Assembly: GCA_000004985.1 (NCBI GenBank)
Contig: GG738848.1
DNA from: Naegleria gruberi
Taxonomy: Eukaryota
Reading direction: 5' to 3' (one strand)
Length of the DNA stretch: 64,000 nucleotides
Every line of letters starts with the position of its first letter. The first letter of the stretch is position 1. The notes under the pieces were generated by a model. That model was not told where the DNA came from, ran no database searches, and worked only from the letters and a program-made list of their open reading frames with translations. Positions 1 through 55,964 of this stretch are shown here, piece after piece. A program made the translations under genes and the position numbers.

Positions 1-1002
1 CACCTCACAACCAACTTGTTTAGCAAATGGTTTTCCAAGATTTTCAGTGGCATCATCAATCATTCTCATTGGTAATACCAAGGGATTACTTTCTATAATG
101 ACCTTTGAAAAAAGACCCTTACTTGCAGGACTAACTAAATGAGCAGTTGTTGAGCTAGCTCCAGCTGATTGACCTCCAATGGTTACTTGTTTAGGATCAC
201 CTCCAAATGCAGCAATATTATTTTGAATCCATTGTAATAATTGCAATTGATCAGTAAATCCATAATTGCCTTCCATTCCTGCTTTTGAGTTGACCAACCA
301 TCCCAAAGCTCCCAAACGATAAGAACCAACAATTATAATGATATTTGTCTTGTTTGCAATGTAAGTTCCATCATAGAGTATAACATCAGGTCCACCTTGC
401 TATTTTTTTTCATTGAATATTATTTTACAAAATTAAATAGTTAAATATTTAAATAGTTAAATAGTTTACAAACCTCAAAATGACCACCAGGTAAAAAAAC
501 ATAAACAGGAACAAGTTGATCCCTGATAGTATCAATCCTAGGAGTAAATAGATCAATAAATAGACAATCTTCACTCTGAGTTGACGGACAAGTTAAGGGA
601 GGTAATTCACATCGTTGCGGGCATGCTAATTGATGATAATATTCGAAAGTTAATAGATTAGTATGACATACCTGGGGTTGGGATTGTGTTATTTGCATAA
701 AAGATTCCATCATGTTTACCAATTGGTTGTGATGGTTGGAATCTCAACTTTCCAATAGGTGGTTTCGAATAACGAATTCCTGTGAAAGCTCTGGCAGTTA
801 TTTGATATTCAGGAAATGATGAGATGAAACCCTTGTATTTACCGAGAGGAGATGTTACAATCAATTCATCTTGATCACTACATTTTACTTGTTGATGATT
901 CGAATAAATGATCAATAAGAATCCCAGTAGAATGCACAGTGCAAGATTAGTTTTCATGTATTTTTTTTTTGAGAATGAAGAGTTTGAAATTTCACGAGAC
1001 AT
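1..1002 (-). CDS. Carboxylesterase type B / cholinesterase-like secreted alpha/beta hydrolase. Partial: the C-terminal part lies beyond the window start.
   Basis: Minus-strand ORFs 658-1002 and 441-722, plus an open frame at 1-399, join through two GT-AG introns. Exons are 1002 (or ATG 957)..672, 625..474 and 399..1; introns are 46 and 74 nt. Motifs seen: signal-like MKTNLALCILLGFLLI, FTGIRYSKPPIGKLRF, EDCLFIDLFTP, VFLPGGHFE|QGG. The nucleophile elbow GGQSAGASS (GxSxG) was read from the reverse complement near 150-180. Confidence 0.85.
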
Positions 1003-49364: not shown

Positions 49365-49771
49365 TTTTCTCTCCAATTAGTGTTCGTGATGTTCTTGCTG
49401 CTTCCCTCTTCTCAACGTTTTGGGATTTTTTTTGTGGAAGAAATTCTGGGCGAAAATACTTCCCAGAGTTATATCATCATTTTTTTTCAGTGTTGCTGTG
49501 GTGCTTTTAATAGAACACCTTATGGCGCGCAGAAGCAATGATGAAATATTGAAAATTGAATACCAACACAATAATCACAACAAATAACCAATGTGAATGT
49601 AAATAAATTGTAGTCTCTTCTGGGAGTGCTATTTATTATTAATATTTAAATTCTTCTTTAATAATTTAAGTTTGATGAAAATATGGTACAACAACTGATA
49701 GTAGGGGAATAATGGAAGAATAAAAATAATAGCCAAATACTTTGGGAAGAGATGATGAATATACAATAATA

Positions 49772-52700
49772 TTACTTTCTGTGGGCAAGAATGTGTACAC
49801 CATCATTAATTCTGGCACGAATATTACCCAAACTTTCCTTGATCTTATCACGGAAAGCATTATCTGCTTCCTCTTTAGAGGCATCGAGAATTAAACATTT
49901 TCTCAACCACAAGACATCTTCAATACTTGACAATTCTGGGATACCTGTACCCAACATTAATGTAAACAAGGTCATTATCATGTGACCATATTTACGTAAA
50001 ATATTGTAAGCCTTACAACCTAATTCACTGAATTTTTCATACATGACACTATTTTCACCACCCATAACATAGGCATACATTGGAGTGAAAACGAAAGGAG
50101 TAGTTTCACGTTTCAAACCAGCAAATGTCTTAAAGTGCCCCAAAAAGTGGCCAAAGTCAATGTGGAACAAGTCTCCCTTCTTGGTTATCATAATATTGTC
50201 ATTGTGTCTGTCACCAATACCTAAAACATAGGTTGCAGAACAGTAACCTGCACAAGAGTGTACAAAGTTATTAACTACTGTATCCCATTCTTCTTCACCG
50301 TTATGTTCTTTGAGCCATTTGTAAATTGGATCTTGTTTGAAAGCACCAGAGAAACCAGCTCTCTTCTTTGTAATATTTGCAATGGTTTGACTGTTTAAAA
50401 CAATTTCAAGCATACCAGTCATATAACCAGTACAAATACAACCATAAGGTTGCATATGAAGATCTAAACCTTCCTTCTTCCACAACTGATCCATAACACG
50501 TAAAACTTGCAAGGTCAATAAATCCTGACGTAAATCGTCACCAGCCTTAAACATGACAAGAATATCATCACCTGTTTCGTCAGCATTCTTGAAACAAAGC
50601 CATAATGGCCTCTTTGCAGAGTCCATGACTCTACATTTTTCTGGAATGATACCAATAACTTCCATACGTGGAGAGAGTGGTAACTTGTATTTTGGTGGTT
50701 GTTTGAGTCCATGAAGTAATTGTACAAGTGCTTCATTAACAGTAGCCTTCTTTTCATGTTTGATCTTAATGGCAATATCGAGCAATTGATCCAAAACACC
50801 GTTTTGTTTCAACAATTCTCTTCTGTGACCACCTGAATTCAATAAATATTCTTCCAAGATAAGACCGTGTCTCTCTTTTGCTGTTGGAACGTGCATTTCG
50901 GCCTTCAAATGCCAAAAGAGAATGTGACCAATGATGTGTGTTGATCTCAAACCTCTTTGAAGCAAAAATCTAGCAAGACTACTGTCATGATATAATTCAT
51001 ACTTAAGTGTTTGAACTAATTGAAGCAAAAAGTCACTCAATTGAACATCTCCTAATTCATTAAGTCTTTCAACTGAATATTGTCTAACTTTTGCATCAGC
51101 AAAGTTATAGTCCAATAATTCTAAAGCATCAACTGGAGTCATTGGTTTCCATCTAGGAAGTAATGTGTGAACAGTATAGACAGCTTGTGGCATCTTCCAT
51201 GGCACGCTCAAAATAAACTTTGGTAAAGCTTTTGGTATGTCAACAAGCTTTTCCTTATTGGACCAAAGTAACCATTTTTCTTCCTCTGTTAGATTTTGAA
51301 GTGGATCTTTGGAAATAATCTGATCAAGTCTCTGTTTCAGTTGTTCTCCTTGTGGTAAATCTTTGAAAAATTCATTAATCTTTTGTTCAAAAGAGGCCAA
51401 ACGTTTAGCCATCTTCTTTGGAGGTCTACCTTGAGGGAAGACCACTGGCAGTGGATAACGATCAAATTGATAAGCAATAACGATTGGTGTTTCATCAGTT
51501 CCAGTATTTTCAGCAACGACACTAATTGGTTTAGCTCTATCATTTGGCCACATTGGAGAAAGATAATCTCCTTGGTTCAAAAATCCCTTAAAGTTAATCA
51601 TTGTCTTAATCACATAACCGAGAGGAATATCCTTTGTACTGACGTGTGAAGGTGTATGGAAAGGATCTTTGGAAGTTGTTTGATTCTTTGTTATCACTCT
51701 TGAGAAGAGAGTAAAGCAGAGCTTTGTTTCTCTTGGAATATCAGAAAGTAAAACATCATCAAATACTATGAATTGATTCCATCTAGGAGATCTACTGAAA
51801 GGTACCATTTTAGTAAATCTGGCTTTTGTAAGTGGTGTACCACCGTGATATAATTCACAGCATACATATAAATAGGTATCGTCAATTTGAGACAAATTTG
51901 AAATAGAGTTGAAATTGAGATTGTCAATGCCCATAATTTTAACTCGTGCACATTTGACTAAATCCCACAAACTCAAATACTGCATTTTGTGCCATTCCTT
52001 TTCTCCAAAACGAATGTCATCATGTGCATAAATTTTTTGGTCCTTCTCGTGTTTAAAATCATATGAAACAGTTTTAAGAGTGACATCTCTAGGATCCAAT
52101 TCAGCCTTCACAGTTTCCTTATCTAAAAGTGTTAGTGTTGGCTTAACTGCCTTTTTCATACATTTTCTAATATGTTCAAATTCTGCCATTTTGTAATCAC
52201 CATACATGTATTCGGCAGTACCAGCTGCTTTAAATACCCAATCTTCCTTCTTTCTTCTCTGTTGATGGGCTGTATTCAATTTGTTTAAAAATATTTCAGC
52301 AAAATCGTCAGCTGTCGTGTTAAAATCACATTCAACAAGTTTTGCTGCCTTATTACCATCAAGTGTACAATTTACGTTAATGTAGAATTTTTTAGTCAAT
52401 TCATTTGGATTAATTGGTTCAACACTCAAAAATACAGGTGGAAGGAAAGCTTCTCTGTCTTCACTTTTCTTATCACTCTTTTCAAAGTGTTGAAGTCTGA
52501 AATTTTCCATAAATTAATATTTGATCATATTTGTGAAATAGTCCCCGAGAGTTAGATAAATTGTTGGATGATAATTGTGGTCAATCATTCTATTCAAAAT
52601 AGTTTTTACATACTTTTTAAAGGTTTCACGAGTAATTTGAACTTCTTCAGAATTCGAACTCCATTCTTTTGTTGGTCCAAGAATAATTTCAATTTCCTTT

Positions 52701-53137
52701 CTAATTTCCTCTTGTGTTGATGAGTTAGCCAAACGTTTACTTGTCTATTATTGTCAAATAACAAGAGTGACAATAAAAGTGATGATCAATGTGATTGTAA
52801 AGATGATAATAGCAATGACGATCCGCAAATAGTGATAAAAGAATAACCATCAATTAATAGATTGAATAGTAGATTATCAACAACACATTCCATCAATATA
52901 TTCCAACAATATAAACATTGTTACTACTAGTTGTTGAAGATTACTACTAACCTCATCGTCTTCCTCCAAAATTTTTCTCCAATGTTCCTCATCTCTTGCT
53001 GTTACTTTACCAAATTTTTCCAATCGCTTGATCATAGCCTCCATTTCTTTAGAGTCCTGTACTGATTCTCCATTTTCACCTCCATTCTCTGTTGTTGTTG
53101 GAGTTGTTGGTGTTTTTGGCTCTGCTTCGACAGGCAT
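49772..53137 (-). CDS. PIK3C: Class I phosphoinositide 3-kinase catalytic subunit (p110-like). The N-terminal exons are tentative.
   Basis: The main ORF 49772-52510 (912 aa) covers a Ras-binding region (WVFKAAGTAEYMYGDYKMAEFEHIRKCM), a C2 domain, a PIK helical domain (LLQLVQTLKYELYHDSSLARFLL) and the kinase domain (GDDLRQDLLTLQV, GIGDRHNDNIM, HIDFGHFLG). The upstream same-frame ORF 52514-52732, with exon 53137..52952 (207-nt intron, acceptor at 52745), appears to encode the N-terminus. A single TAA at 52516..52514 separates the frames. The alternative model is exons 53137..52952, 52744..52614 and 52496..49772 (3042 nt, in frame). Confidence 0.8.
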
Positions 53138-54200
53138 TTTTTTATTGGCTTGATTGGTTAATCATCTATCACAAAATTCTTCTTTCGCTACTCGACATCA
53201 ATGGTTTCTTTGCCTTTTGATGATTACTTGTTGGTTATTATGCACACAATTGTTGACAGAATTTATTCAAGTTGTTAGGGAAACCAATTGTTACATTAGT
53301 TTAGAGAGTAAATAATGGGCTCAACTTTACAAAATATCAAATGAAAAATGTTTCTAAACAATATGTAAAAGCAAAAATCAACAAGCAAGTTGTGACCTAG
53401 GAAAGTGATGAAAACTCAGTAATCATCAGTCTTTTTATCCGTGGTTGTGAACTAGGTTGTAAAAATTAATCATCTTAACATATTCTTGTCAAAGTCTTTC
53501 GTGACAATGTTTTAACATTGACCGTTGCAACATTAGTTTCATTACAACAGTAAATCAAGGGGTTGGATAGTAGGAAACAATACATAGCCAAGTCAGATAA
53601 GGGATCATGTTTTAACAAAACTGTAGTAAAATTCCTTGTTTCTACAAATTTCGCCACTCATTCTCAATTTAGACAAAAATCAACAACTTTTTTTTCACAA
53701 CTGGTTGACGATCCTTAACGCGATGAACATCCAAATCTCCATTGATAAGCAACAACAACTGCTCATTGAATGATTATCTAATCACTAAAAACTTTTGTAT
53801 CAAAATAATTATTGGAAATGAAAGTGAAACTGGGTATTCAATCAAATTGTCTGATTGATTATCCACTACAGCTCGGTCTCAATGACGAGGAACAAAGGAT
53901 TCTCAAACTCTGGCCGAAATGATTGAATAAAAATAAATCATGACCAGAAAAGTTAATTTTGCGAGAGAAATCACCGTTATGAATCGCCTCCAAGCAATAA
54001 TATTGTAGCGCTAGCTAATCAATTTGACAAAAAAAACGTGCGTTCAATCAATTGTACAAACCGCCAAACAACAACAACAACTAGTGATAGGTACTTTCAA
54101 TAACAAGTTTGTTCCTATTCCCAACCCATTTCATACCTAGAGATTTATGCTCCTATAAGCCAATCATTTTCTATAATTTCATTCCTTACAAATCATCATC

Positions 54201-55964
54201 ATGAATTTTGAATCAAACATCCCAAAGAACTCTTCCCTTGAAGACTTTTTTAGTGGTGTTTTCAATACTAGTGCATCACACTCTTTCATGATGAATAATG
54301 ATGATAACATGTACTTGGATGAAAATGTTAATGAATTCTTTGGAACTAGTCCTGAGCAAGATCCATTCTCCTCCTACTTCCCTTTCAATAATAACAATAA
54401 TAGTTTTTATGCCACCTCCTTCCCTGAAAATTCATCACCAATTAATAACATCAATGAAACCCAACAACAAATTGCCAAATCCTCCTCTATCCTCTCCCTA
54501 ACTGATTTTAAGCCTTCCTTCTCTAGAACCTCTTCCTCTACCTCATTTGCAGGATTGCAAACCCCATCTATTCTCCACAATGGTGAATCCTCGCCGATGG
54601 AAAGCTTCCATCAAATGGATGAATTCCAACGTCAATTAGATGAAGATTTTTTGAGAAATGGTGGTGTTACCTCTCTCAATATTTCTTCAGAAAGTGCTTT
54701 CAAACCAAGATCTGATCAACATTTGTTTAAATTTAATAAGCAAATGGACTTTTTAAGCGGTATTCCAAAACCATCAACTACAGAATCAAATCAAGACATT
54801 TTTGCCTCATTGAATGATATTTCAGAGTCACTTATTGAAGAACCACCAAAAGATTCTACTATTGATGCTATGGATACTTCGAGTGTAAATTCCAAAACTA
54901 CACCTGGTCTTCCACCAGGTCATAAGATAATCAACGGTGAAATGTATAATGACAGAGGATATAAGATTTGTGGTTTTATGAATCAACATAATAGACCATG
55001 TCAAAGAATTGGTAAATGCCCATTCCACGATAGAATGAAGAGTGATAAACCTTTATCCACAAATAGTGATGGTATTATTGCTGCTCAGGATAGTATTGAA
55101 CCAGAACATTTTGCACCAACTCAGGTCGTTAAAGAAAAGAAGAAGAGTGAAAAGAAATCAAAGAAGAAACAAGACGAAACTCTGTTAGAAGTTCCATCAG
55201 TTGAATCTTTGACTACAAGTACTACCACAGCCAGTGCTTCAACAACAACTGAAGATAAACCAGCAACCAAGAAGCCATACAAGCAAGGTTGGACCAAGGA
55301 AGAACATATTCTCTTCCTTAAAGGTCTTGAACTTCACGGCAAGGGAAGCTGGAAGGAAATAAGTGCAATTGTTGGTACAAGAAGTCCAACTCAAATCCAA
55401 TCACATGCTCAAAAATATTTCCTCAGACAAAAACAACAAAAGAAGAATAAGCGATCAATTCATGACTTTACAATGGATGACATGAAGAAACAAGATTCAG
55501 TTGAAGAAGTTGAAGAAAACAATCACAAGAGAAAGAGAAACAAATCCAAATCAAAAGAATCCAAGAAGACTGGAGCTGTTCATTCTGAAGATTCATTATC
55601 ATCAGAACCACAATTAGAAGTATTTGGTGAAACTCTTGTTGGTGATGCTAATGCCTCACTTATGAAACAATTCACTTTAGCTCCTCCTAAACCACAACAA
55701 CCTCAACCACAAGATGCAAACTATATGGATATTATTAACAAGTTGAACCATTTGAAAAGCTTTCCCAAACAGTCACCTTCTACTGGCAAGTCTTCTGCTT
55801 TCAGCAGCGTTTCCTCGGACGAATTAGACTTTCACTTCAATACAAACAACGAATCAATTCCAACAGTTACAGAGGAACATTCTGATCTTTATGATGCTTG
55901 GGAAATTGGCGAATCATCAACAATAGATGATGTTGCTCCTTTCCAAAAGAAAATCAAATTGTAA
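54201..55964 (+). CDS. Single-repeat Myb/SANT transcription factor of the SHAQKYF class
   Basis: Single ORF of 587 aa. WTKEEHILFLKGLELHGKGSWKEISAIVGTRSPTQIQSHAQKYFLRQ. Basic tracts flank the repeat. An upstream Cys/His cluster reads CGFMNQHNRPCQRIGKCPFH. Confidence 0.8.
   Translation: MNFESNIPKNSSLEDFFSGVFNTSASHSFMMNNDDNMYLDENVNEFFGTSPEQDPFSSYFPFNNNNNSFYATSFPENSSPINNINETQQQIAKSSSILSLTDFKPSFSRTSSSTSFAGLQTPSILHNGESSPMESFHQMDEFQRQLDEDFLRNGGVTSLNISSESAFKPRSDQHLFKFNKQMDFLSGIPKPSTTESNQDIFASLNDISESLIEEPPKDSTIDAMDTSSVNSKTTPGLPPGHKIINGEMYNDRGYKICGFMNQHNRPCQRIGKCPFHDRMKSDKPLSTNSDGIIAAQDSIEPEHFAPTQVVKEKKKSEKKSKKKQDETLLEVPSVESLTTSTTTASASTTTEDKPATKKPYKQGWTKEEHILFLKGLELHGKGSWKEISAIVGTRSPTQIQSHAQKYFLRQKQQKKNKRSIHDFTMDDMKKQDSVEEVEENNHKRKRNKSKSKESKKTGAVHSEDSLSSEPQLEVFGETLVGDANASLMKQFTLAPPKPQQPQPQDANYMDIINKLNHLKSFPKQSPSTGKSSAFSSVSSDELDFHFNTNNESIPTVTEEHSDLYDAWEIGESSTIDDVAPFQKKIKL

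Follow-up and report, generated by a model that had tools for sequence, protein, structure and literature searches.

The window analyzed here is a stretch of 64,000 nucleotides from contig GG738848.1 of Naegleria gruberi (assembly GCA_000004985.1), and the minus strand of its positions 53137..49772 carries a gene for a phosphoinositide 3-kinase (PI3K) that at first sight appears to be broken by one stop codon. An open reading frame (ORF) at 52514..52732 ends in TAA, and a single TTT codon (52513..52511) separates this stop (52516..52514) from an ATG at 52510..52508 that opens a second ORF of 912 aa (49772..52510). The initial annotation of the locus gave correct minus-strand coordinates for the TAA, for the ATG at 52510 and for a 117-nt stretch GTATGT...TTTCAG at 52613..52497, and the two ORFs do share one frame, as it stated. 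Based on sequence comparisons, we consider it very probable that the TAA belongs to a U2-type GT-AG spliceosomal intron of the ordinary kind, namely intron 2 of a three-exon gene for a class I-type PI3K of 1013 aa. The finding is an ordinary, already known kind of feature, and the apparent split of the kinase is what any intron-containing eukaryotic gene shows under a prokaryotic ORF rule.

The whole gene span is 3366 nt, a multiple of three, and its ATG at 53137, the first in-frame start after a stop, is in the frame of the kinase. Since both introns are also multiples of three (207 and 117 nt), one continuous frame appears to be split by a single stop. The TTG start assigned to the upstream ORF is a product of the bacterial ORF rule, and this ORF really begins at the 3' splice site of intron 1, at 52744. 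The features of the gene model are as follows.

52952..53137, minus strand: exon 1, 186 nt or 62 codons, with the ATG at 53137 and a phase 0 end after ...KILEEDDE
52745..52951, minus strand: intron 1, 207 nt, GTTAGT...AATAG, phase 0
52614..52744, minus strand: exon 2, 131 nt, encoding TSKRLANSSTQEEIRKEIEIILGPTKEWSSNSEEVQITRETFK plus 2 nt; aligns to the linker between the adaptor-binding domain (ABD) and the RBD (ABD-RBD linker)
52497..52613, minus strand: intron 2, 117 nt, GTATGT...TTTCAG, phase 2; contains the TAA
52514..52516, minus strand: the in-frame TAA within intron 2, read from the sequence and also present in the independent contig L004
52508..52510, minus strand: the intronic ATG, apparent start of the 912-aa ORF and not a real start codon
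49772..52496, minus strand: exon 3, 2725 nt with the stop codon counted; carries the RBD and the C2, helical and kinase domains

Removal of both introns from this model leaves a coding sequence (CDS) of 3042 nt, or 1013 aa, that is free of stops. In the proposed scheme the spliceosome would remove introns 1 and 2, a codon AA|A would be re-formed across the second junction to give ...RETFK-K-LQHFEKS..., and neither the TAA nor the intronic ATG would ever reach the mature mRNA. The A of this ATG precedes the 3' splice site of intron 2 by 14 nt, and the residues MENF are intron-encoded. The resulting protein would start with a short N-terminal region; a helical, linker-like region would follow, and after it the RBD, the C2 domain, the helical domain and the kinase domain, with no ABD.

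The splice signals of intron 2 can be read directly. Its donor is GTATGT at 52613..52608, where the orthologous donors are GTATGT, GTAAGT and GTACGT, and its 3' end at 52497 is AAAATTTCAG, a YAG after a T-rich tract. Branch-like motifs are found, a CTAAC 54 nt from the 3' end and yUnAy motifs 13–17 nt from it; the presence of such motifs is weak evidence alone. The GC content is 0.26 in intron 2 and 0.28 in intron 1, compared with 0.41 in exon 1 and a range of 0.32–0.41 among the exons. In-frame coding scores follow the same division, with 0.65 and 0.55 bits per codon for exons 1 and 2 and -0.03 and 0.08 for introns 1 and 2, the last value being within the lowest 3% of exon 3 windows. Intron 1 contains six in-frame stops. 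When the interior of intron 2 was shuffled 20,000 times, 17% of the shuffles had one or zero in-frame stops, and the "only one stop" look of this intron is statistically unremarkable. The initial annotation regarded each of its three readings (an intron, a genuine stop, and a mutation or base error) as unusual; this does not hold for the intron, as eukaryotic genes normally contain short GT-AG introns with stops in frame. An Rfam scan of 52300..53300 for an embedded small nucleolar RNA, a readthrough structure or a structure resembling an internal ribosome entry site gave no match, and no stable fold was predicted for the intron 2 RNA. The intron 2 RNA is predicted to be less stable than all of 200 dinucleotide-preserving shuffles (z=+2.66).

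The closest homologues are the proteins of N. lovaniensis (83% identity, 100% coverage) and Willaertia magna (76%), together with environmental heterolobosean proteins (41–53%). Collinearity was observed directly in an alignment of eight sequences, comprising the spliced and unspliced translations and six homologues. The 39 residues encoded by intron 2, YVKTILNRM...MIKY*FMENFR, form an insertion that is unique to the unspliced translation among these sequences, and the spliced junction ...RETFKK|LQHFEKS... matches ...RETVKKIQYFEKS.... Exon 1 corresponds in the alignment to the N-terminal ends of the two orthologues from N. lovaniensis and W. magna. Peptides of the sequence YVKTILNRMIDHNYHPTIYLTLGDYFTNMIKY, if found, would contradict the splicing of intron 2. 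Some relatives are not split here: the 3.1-kb contig L003 is filled by a single ORF, and L005/L006 and L008 are open straight across the position of the intron 2 junction, and therefore both parts belong to one protein. The initial annotation had likewise taken the upstream ORF as the N-terminus of the kinase and not as a separate gene, which agrees with these single-ORF relatives and with 88% protein identity to N. lovaniensis in exon 2 (38/43 residues).

As a separate observation, L005 and L006 (JAESGV010000608.1 and JAESGV010001371.1, of one assembly) carry near-identical PI3K copies in which intron 1 is present and intron 2 is absent. The pair may represent two alleles or a recent duplication, and one more intron within the RBD is suggested by a change of frame that falls between residues 148 and 157 of the query.

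The conservation of intron position is also a direct observation. We rebuilt the exon structures of the N. lovaniensis (C9374_014432) and W. magna (ABK040_006750) orthologues from their genomic loci, and both introns were found at the identical codon and phase in the two species. Intron 1 is 243 nt long in N. lovaniensis (L001 2238..2480) and 58 nt in W. magna; intron 2 is 234 nt (L001 2612..2845) and 40 nt, respectively. At a larger distance (33% identity), the metagenomic contig L007 carries an intron of 126 nt, GTACGT...CTAG (476..601), at the same phase-2 position as intron 2, as well as an acceptor at the position of intron 1, where L005/L006 have an intron too. Each of the orthologous intron 2 intervals contains 4–7 in-frame stops, and neither W. 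magna intron is a multiple of three. Because all orthologous introns carry stops and those of W. magna are not multiples of three, no readthrough product can be conserved. Among the readings offered by the initial annotation, the 117-nt frame-preserving intron is thus the correct one, in view of a spliced CDS that is stop-free and collinear and of an intron position that is shared.

The lengths of the introns at both positions deserve a remark of their own, for five of the seven (207, 117, 243, 234 and 126 nt, and not 58 and 40 nt) are divisible by three. The prior for a length divisible by three is 1/3. This excess is probably due to chance, because the binomial probability, calculated by hand, is ~0.05 and the introns do not represent independent cases.

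The pattern of constraint, again directly observed, separates exons from introns. N. gruberi, N. lovaniensis and W. magna share an exon 2 length of exactly 131 nt, and the DNA similarity of this exon to the N. lovaniensis and W. magna orthologues reaches z=28 and z=20, while the first 300 nt of exon 3 reach z=59 and z=25 against the orthologues and exon 1 reaches z=15.6 against N. lovaniensis. No DNA similarity to the orthologous introns was detected for intron 1 (z=1.3 and 1.5), and none to the N. lovaniensis and W. magna introns for intron 2 (z=1.9 and -1.9). Within exon 2, 19/25 of the substitutions relative to N. lovaniensis fall on third codon positions, and the codon changes are 16 synonymous and 5 nonsynonymous. 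It is from such comparative evidence that we infer the actual splicing of this gene in N. gruberi RNA.

An independent view of the locus is given by L004, an ENA assembly contig from run ERR1078381 of a separate project, which covers 53638..49404 with 99.6% identity, 10 mismatches and 2 indels. Intron 2 is identical in this contig, with the TAA included, and since the contig is polymorphic and independent a base error is unlikely. The differences consist of seven substitutions and a 5-nt indel in the 5' flank (53283..53582), a 3-nt indel in intron 1 (52807), two C>T changes in exon 3 (51260 and 51206) and one change in the 3' flank (49622). Both exon 3 differences are synonymous, because the 912-aa product is identical. 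Such a distribution of polymorphism is the one expected for a functional gene.

Judged by its domains and motifs, the gene product is a class I-type PI3K catalytic subunit. Pfam recognizes PI3K_rbd (132–232), PI3K_C2 (313–431), PI3Ka (485–668) and PI3_PI4_kinase (753–962) on the 1013-aa model, all above their gathering scores. The best matches among solved structures are p110alpha, beta, gamma and delta (E ~1e-146 to 1e-151, residues 191–991), a closest-structure comparison that refers to the p110 isoforms. In the alignment with p110alpha, GDRHNDN and HIDFGH fall on its catalytic and activation-loop motifs. Class I PI3Ks have previously been reported in N. gruberi (PMC3823935). The ABD (Pfam PI3K_p85B) was found neither in the 1013-aa model at E<=0.1 nor in P0001, P0003 or P0007 at E<=1, and the model thereby does not show the N-terminal ABD by which class IA (p85-regulated) enzymes are recognized. 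The 62-residue N-terminus encoded by exon 1 (...AMIKRLEKF...WRKILEEDDE) has no Pfam match and is kept only among heterolobosean PI3Ks. In the more distant P0007, PI3K_rbd also matches a second, unlocated stretch besides the RBD.

How far the region encoded by exon 2 resembles the ABD-RBD linker of p110 enzymes, as proposed in the initial annotation, depends on the search. In a single-sequence search the alignment to p110 begins only at residue 185–191. The alignment to class I PI3K N-termini that had been suggested was run as a profile, and the profile of the N-terminal 300 residues is collinear with p110alpha 109–295 and p110delta 110–290, that is, with the ABD-RBD linker plus the RBD; homology of the upstream ORF to PI3K N-terminal regions is in this way detected with the RBD-including profile (p110alpha 109–295). 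At the residue level EIxxxxG...EVQxFR matches across exon 2, and the splice junction is crossed with small gaps only; the p110alpha sequence used at this level was entered by hand, and it reproduced the coordinates of the profile (73–237 to 109–295) with a score within ~1.3 bits. A linker-only profile (90 positions) searched against PDB gave no p110 match, its top match being a designed repeat protein, a low-complexity artefact. Therefore the resemblance stands for the linker taken together with the RBD and not for the linker by itself: its homology is supported only when the RBD is in the profile. The conserved motif EIxxxLG...W...EVxxFRE lies in exon 2, upstream of the intron 2 donor, and the concern that splicing deletes it is therefore unfounded. 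The initial annotation had expected the intron to delete the part that looks conserved; what is actually removed, YVKTILNRM...MIKY, has no counterpart in any homologue.

Several points weigh against the three-exon model and have to be set beside the evidence above. When the junction formed by splicing exon 2 to exon 3 was sought as a degenerate 32-nt pattern, JGI contigs from metagenomes and metatranscriptomes gave no match. The three-exon model is missing from the reference annotation of N. gruberi, which has a 522-aa partial entry only, and the gene models of N. lovaniensis and W. magna are themselves predictions; the continuity of the unsplit relatives and the codon-position pattern are independent of these two annotations. 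With the CTAAC at a distance of 54 nt from the 3' splice site, the assignment of the branch site is uncertain. When the N-terminal 221 aa served as the query of a protein search, no scored matches were returned, and as this search was insensitive enough to miss the ~80% identical P0001, its outcome is not evidence. Similar caution applies to the negatives of the full-length protein homologue search, which missed the self-cluster of N. gruberi (P0010 and P0009). Public N. gruberi RNA-seq exists as ENA PRJEB23822 (PMC6142364).

Among the alternatives, the one in which intron 2 is normally spliced is a regulated retention of this intron, or an alternative initiation, in a fraction of the transcripts, where the TAA would end a 138-aa peptide or trigger decay and the AUG at 52510 could start a 912-aa isoform without the N-terminal linker. 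Among eukaryotes other than animals, alternative splicing most often takes the form of intron retention, which has been detected in N. gruberi RNA-seq (PMC6142364). In the present gene an in-frame ATG 3 nt after the TAA opens the entire 912-aa ORF; this TAA/ATG arrangement is all that speaks for retention at the locus itself, and it is not conserved in W. magna, where a direct reading of intron 2 shows that an in-frame TAA follows the intronic ATG before the exon is reached and where the intron length is not a multiple of three. Every orthologous intron has several in-frame stops, intron 2 shows no conserved sequence or structure, and eukaryotic ribosomes re-initiate inefficiently once they have translated an ORF of 138 codons. 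We therefore regard such regulation as very improbable. If it were true, retention of an intron divisible by three would switch between the full-length kinase and the 912-aa form, or would down-regulate the kinase through unproductive splicing.

Readthrough, bicistrony and nonsense mutation, which the initial annotation kept beside the intron, are effectively excluded. A genuine stop in the mature mRNA would imply either readthrough into one long protein or two cistrons 3 nt apart, and the shared frame of the two ORFs with only TAA-TTT between them fits with this. Nevertheless, the orthologous intervals (234, 40 and 126 nt) are dissimilar and unconserved and have 4–7 in-frame stops, with the W. 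magna interval not a multiple of three and shifting the frame; the peptide from the donor to the TAA has no counterpart in any homologue; and relatives carry both parts in a single ORF. The stop context is TAA-T, and TAA followed by T is not known to be leaky; the surrounding RNA, moreover, folds worse than 200/200 shuffles and has no Rfam match. We would give a genuine stop almost no chance. Equally negligible is the idea that a nonsense mutation (as in a pseudogene or a strain-specific lesion) or an error of sequencing or assembly made the TAA, even if a lone stop in an open frame can resemble a point lesion and the reference annotation is partial. The same TAA and an identical intron occur in L004, a polymorphic contig from another project, and the stop sits in sequence that is non-homologous to any coding sequence, while both the 912-aa ORF and the first two exons have stayed intact under purifying selection and the two exon 3 differences from L004 are both synonymous. 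A ciliate-type reassignment of stop codons was also considered and rejected, as the standard code leaves the long ORFs open and the DNA comes from Naegleria.

With the TAA placed in intron 2 of a three-exon gene, the practical gain is a complete model of 1013 aa in place of a public fragment of 522 aa. The NCBI entry for the gene is XP_002682091.1, a "predicted protein, partial" of 522 aa that corresponds to ~residues 490–1011 of the 1013-aa model; the exact 1013-aa product was not found in the protein collection, which held only the 912-aa ORF call and this partial NCBI model. The fuller model is useful for surveys of phosphoinositide signalling in Naegleria, among them drug-target studies of the pathogenic relative N. 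fowleri. The position of intron 2, common to Naegleria, Willaertia and a more distant heterolobosean and absent in others, adds a small data point on intron gain and loss. Upstream of the PI3K gene lies a divergent gene with a SANT/Myb domain (54201..55964, plus strand), also found at L001 1..701 and L002 1..918; its 587-aa ORF (54201..55961, plus strand) encodes a protein identical to XP_002681941.1 of N. gruberi NEG-M, the strain from which the window comes. As the SANT/Myb gene is upstream in N. gruberi, N. lovaniensis and W. magna, the local synteny is conserved.

Compared with known systems, the predicted protein shares the architecture of RBD, C2, helical (PIK) and kinase domains with the class I PI3K catalytic subunits, including the human p110s and protist class I enzymes, and differs from class I p110s in having no ABD and a 62-residue N-terminal region in its place. 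Intron 2 in turn would be one of the U2-type GT-AG introns of Heterolobosea, occupying the same site as those of C9374_014432 and ABK040_006750, in phase 2 after FRETxK plus 2 nt. With these N. lovaniensis and W. magna introns it has in common a GTAWGT donor, a YAG acceptor, a low GC content, in-frame stops and an unconserved sequence, and it differs from them only in length (117 nt vs. 234 and 40 nt) and sequence. Unlike these two annotated introns, the intron of N. gruberi is absent from the public annotation.

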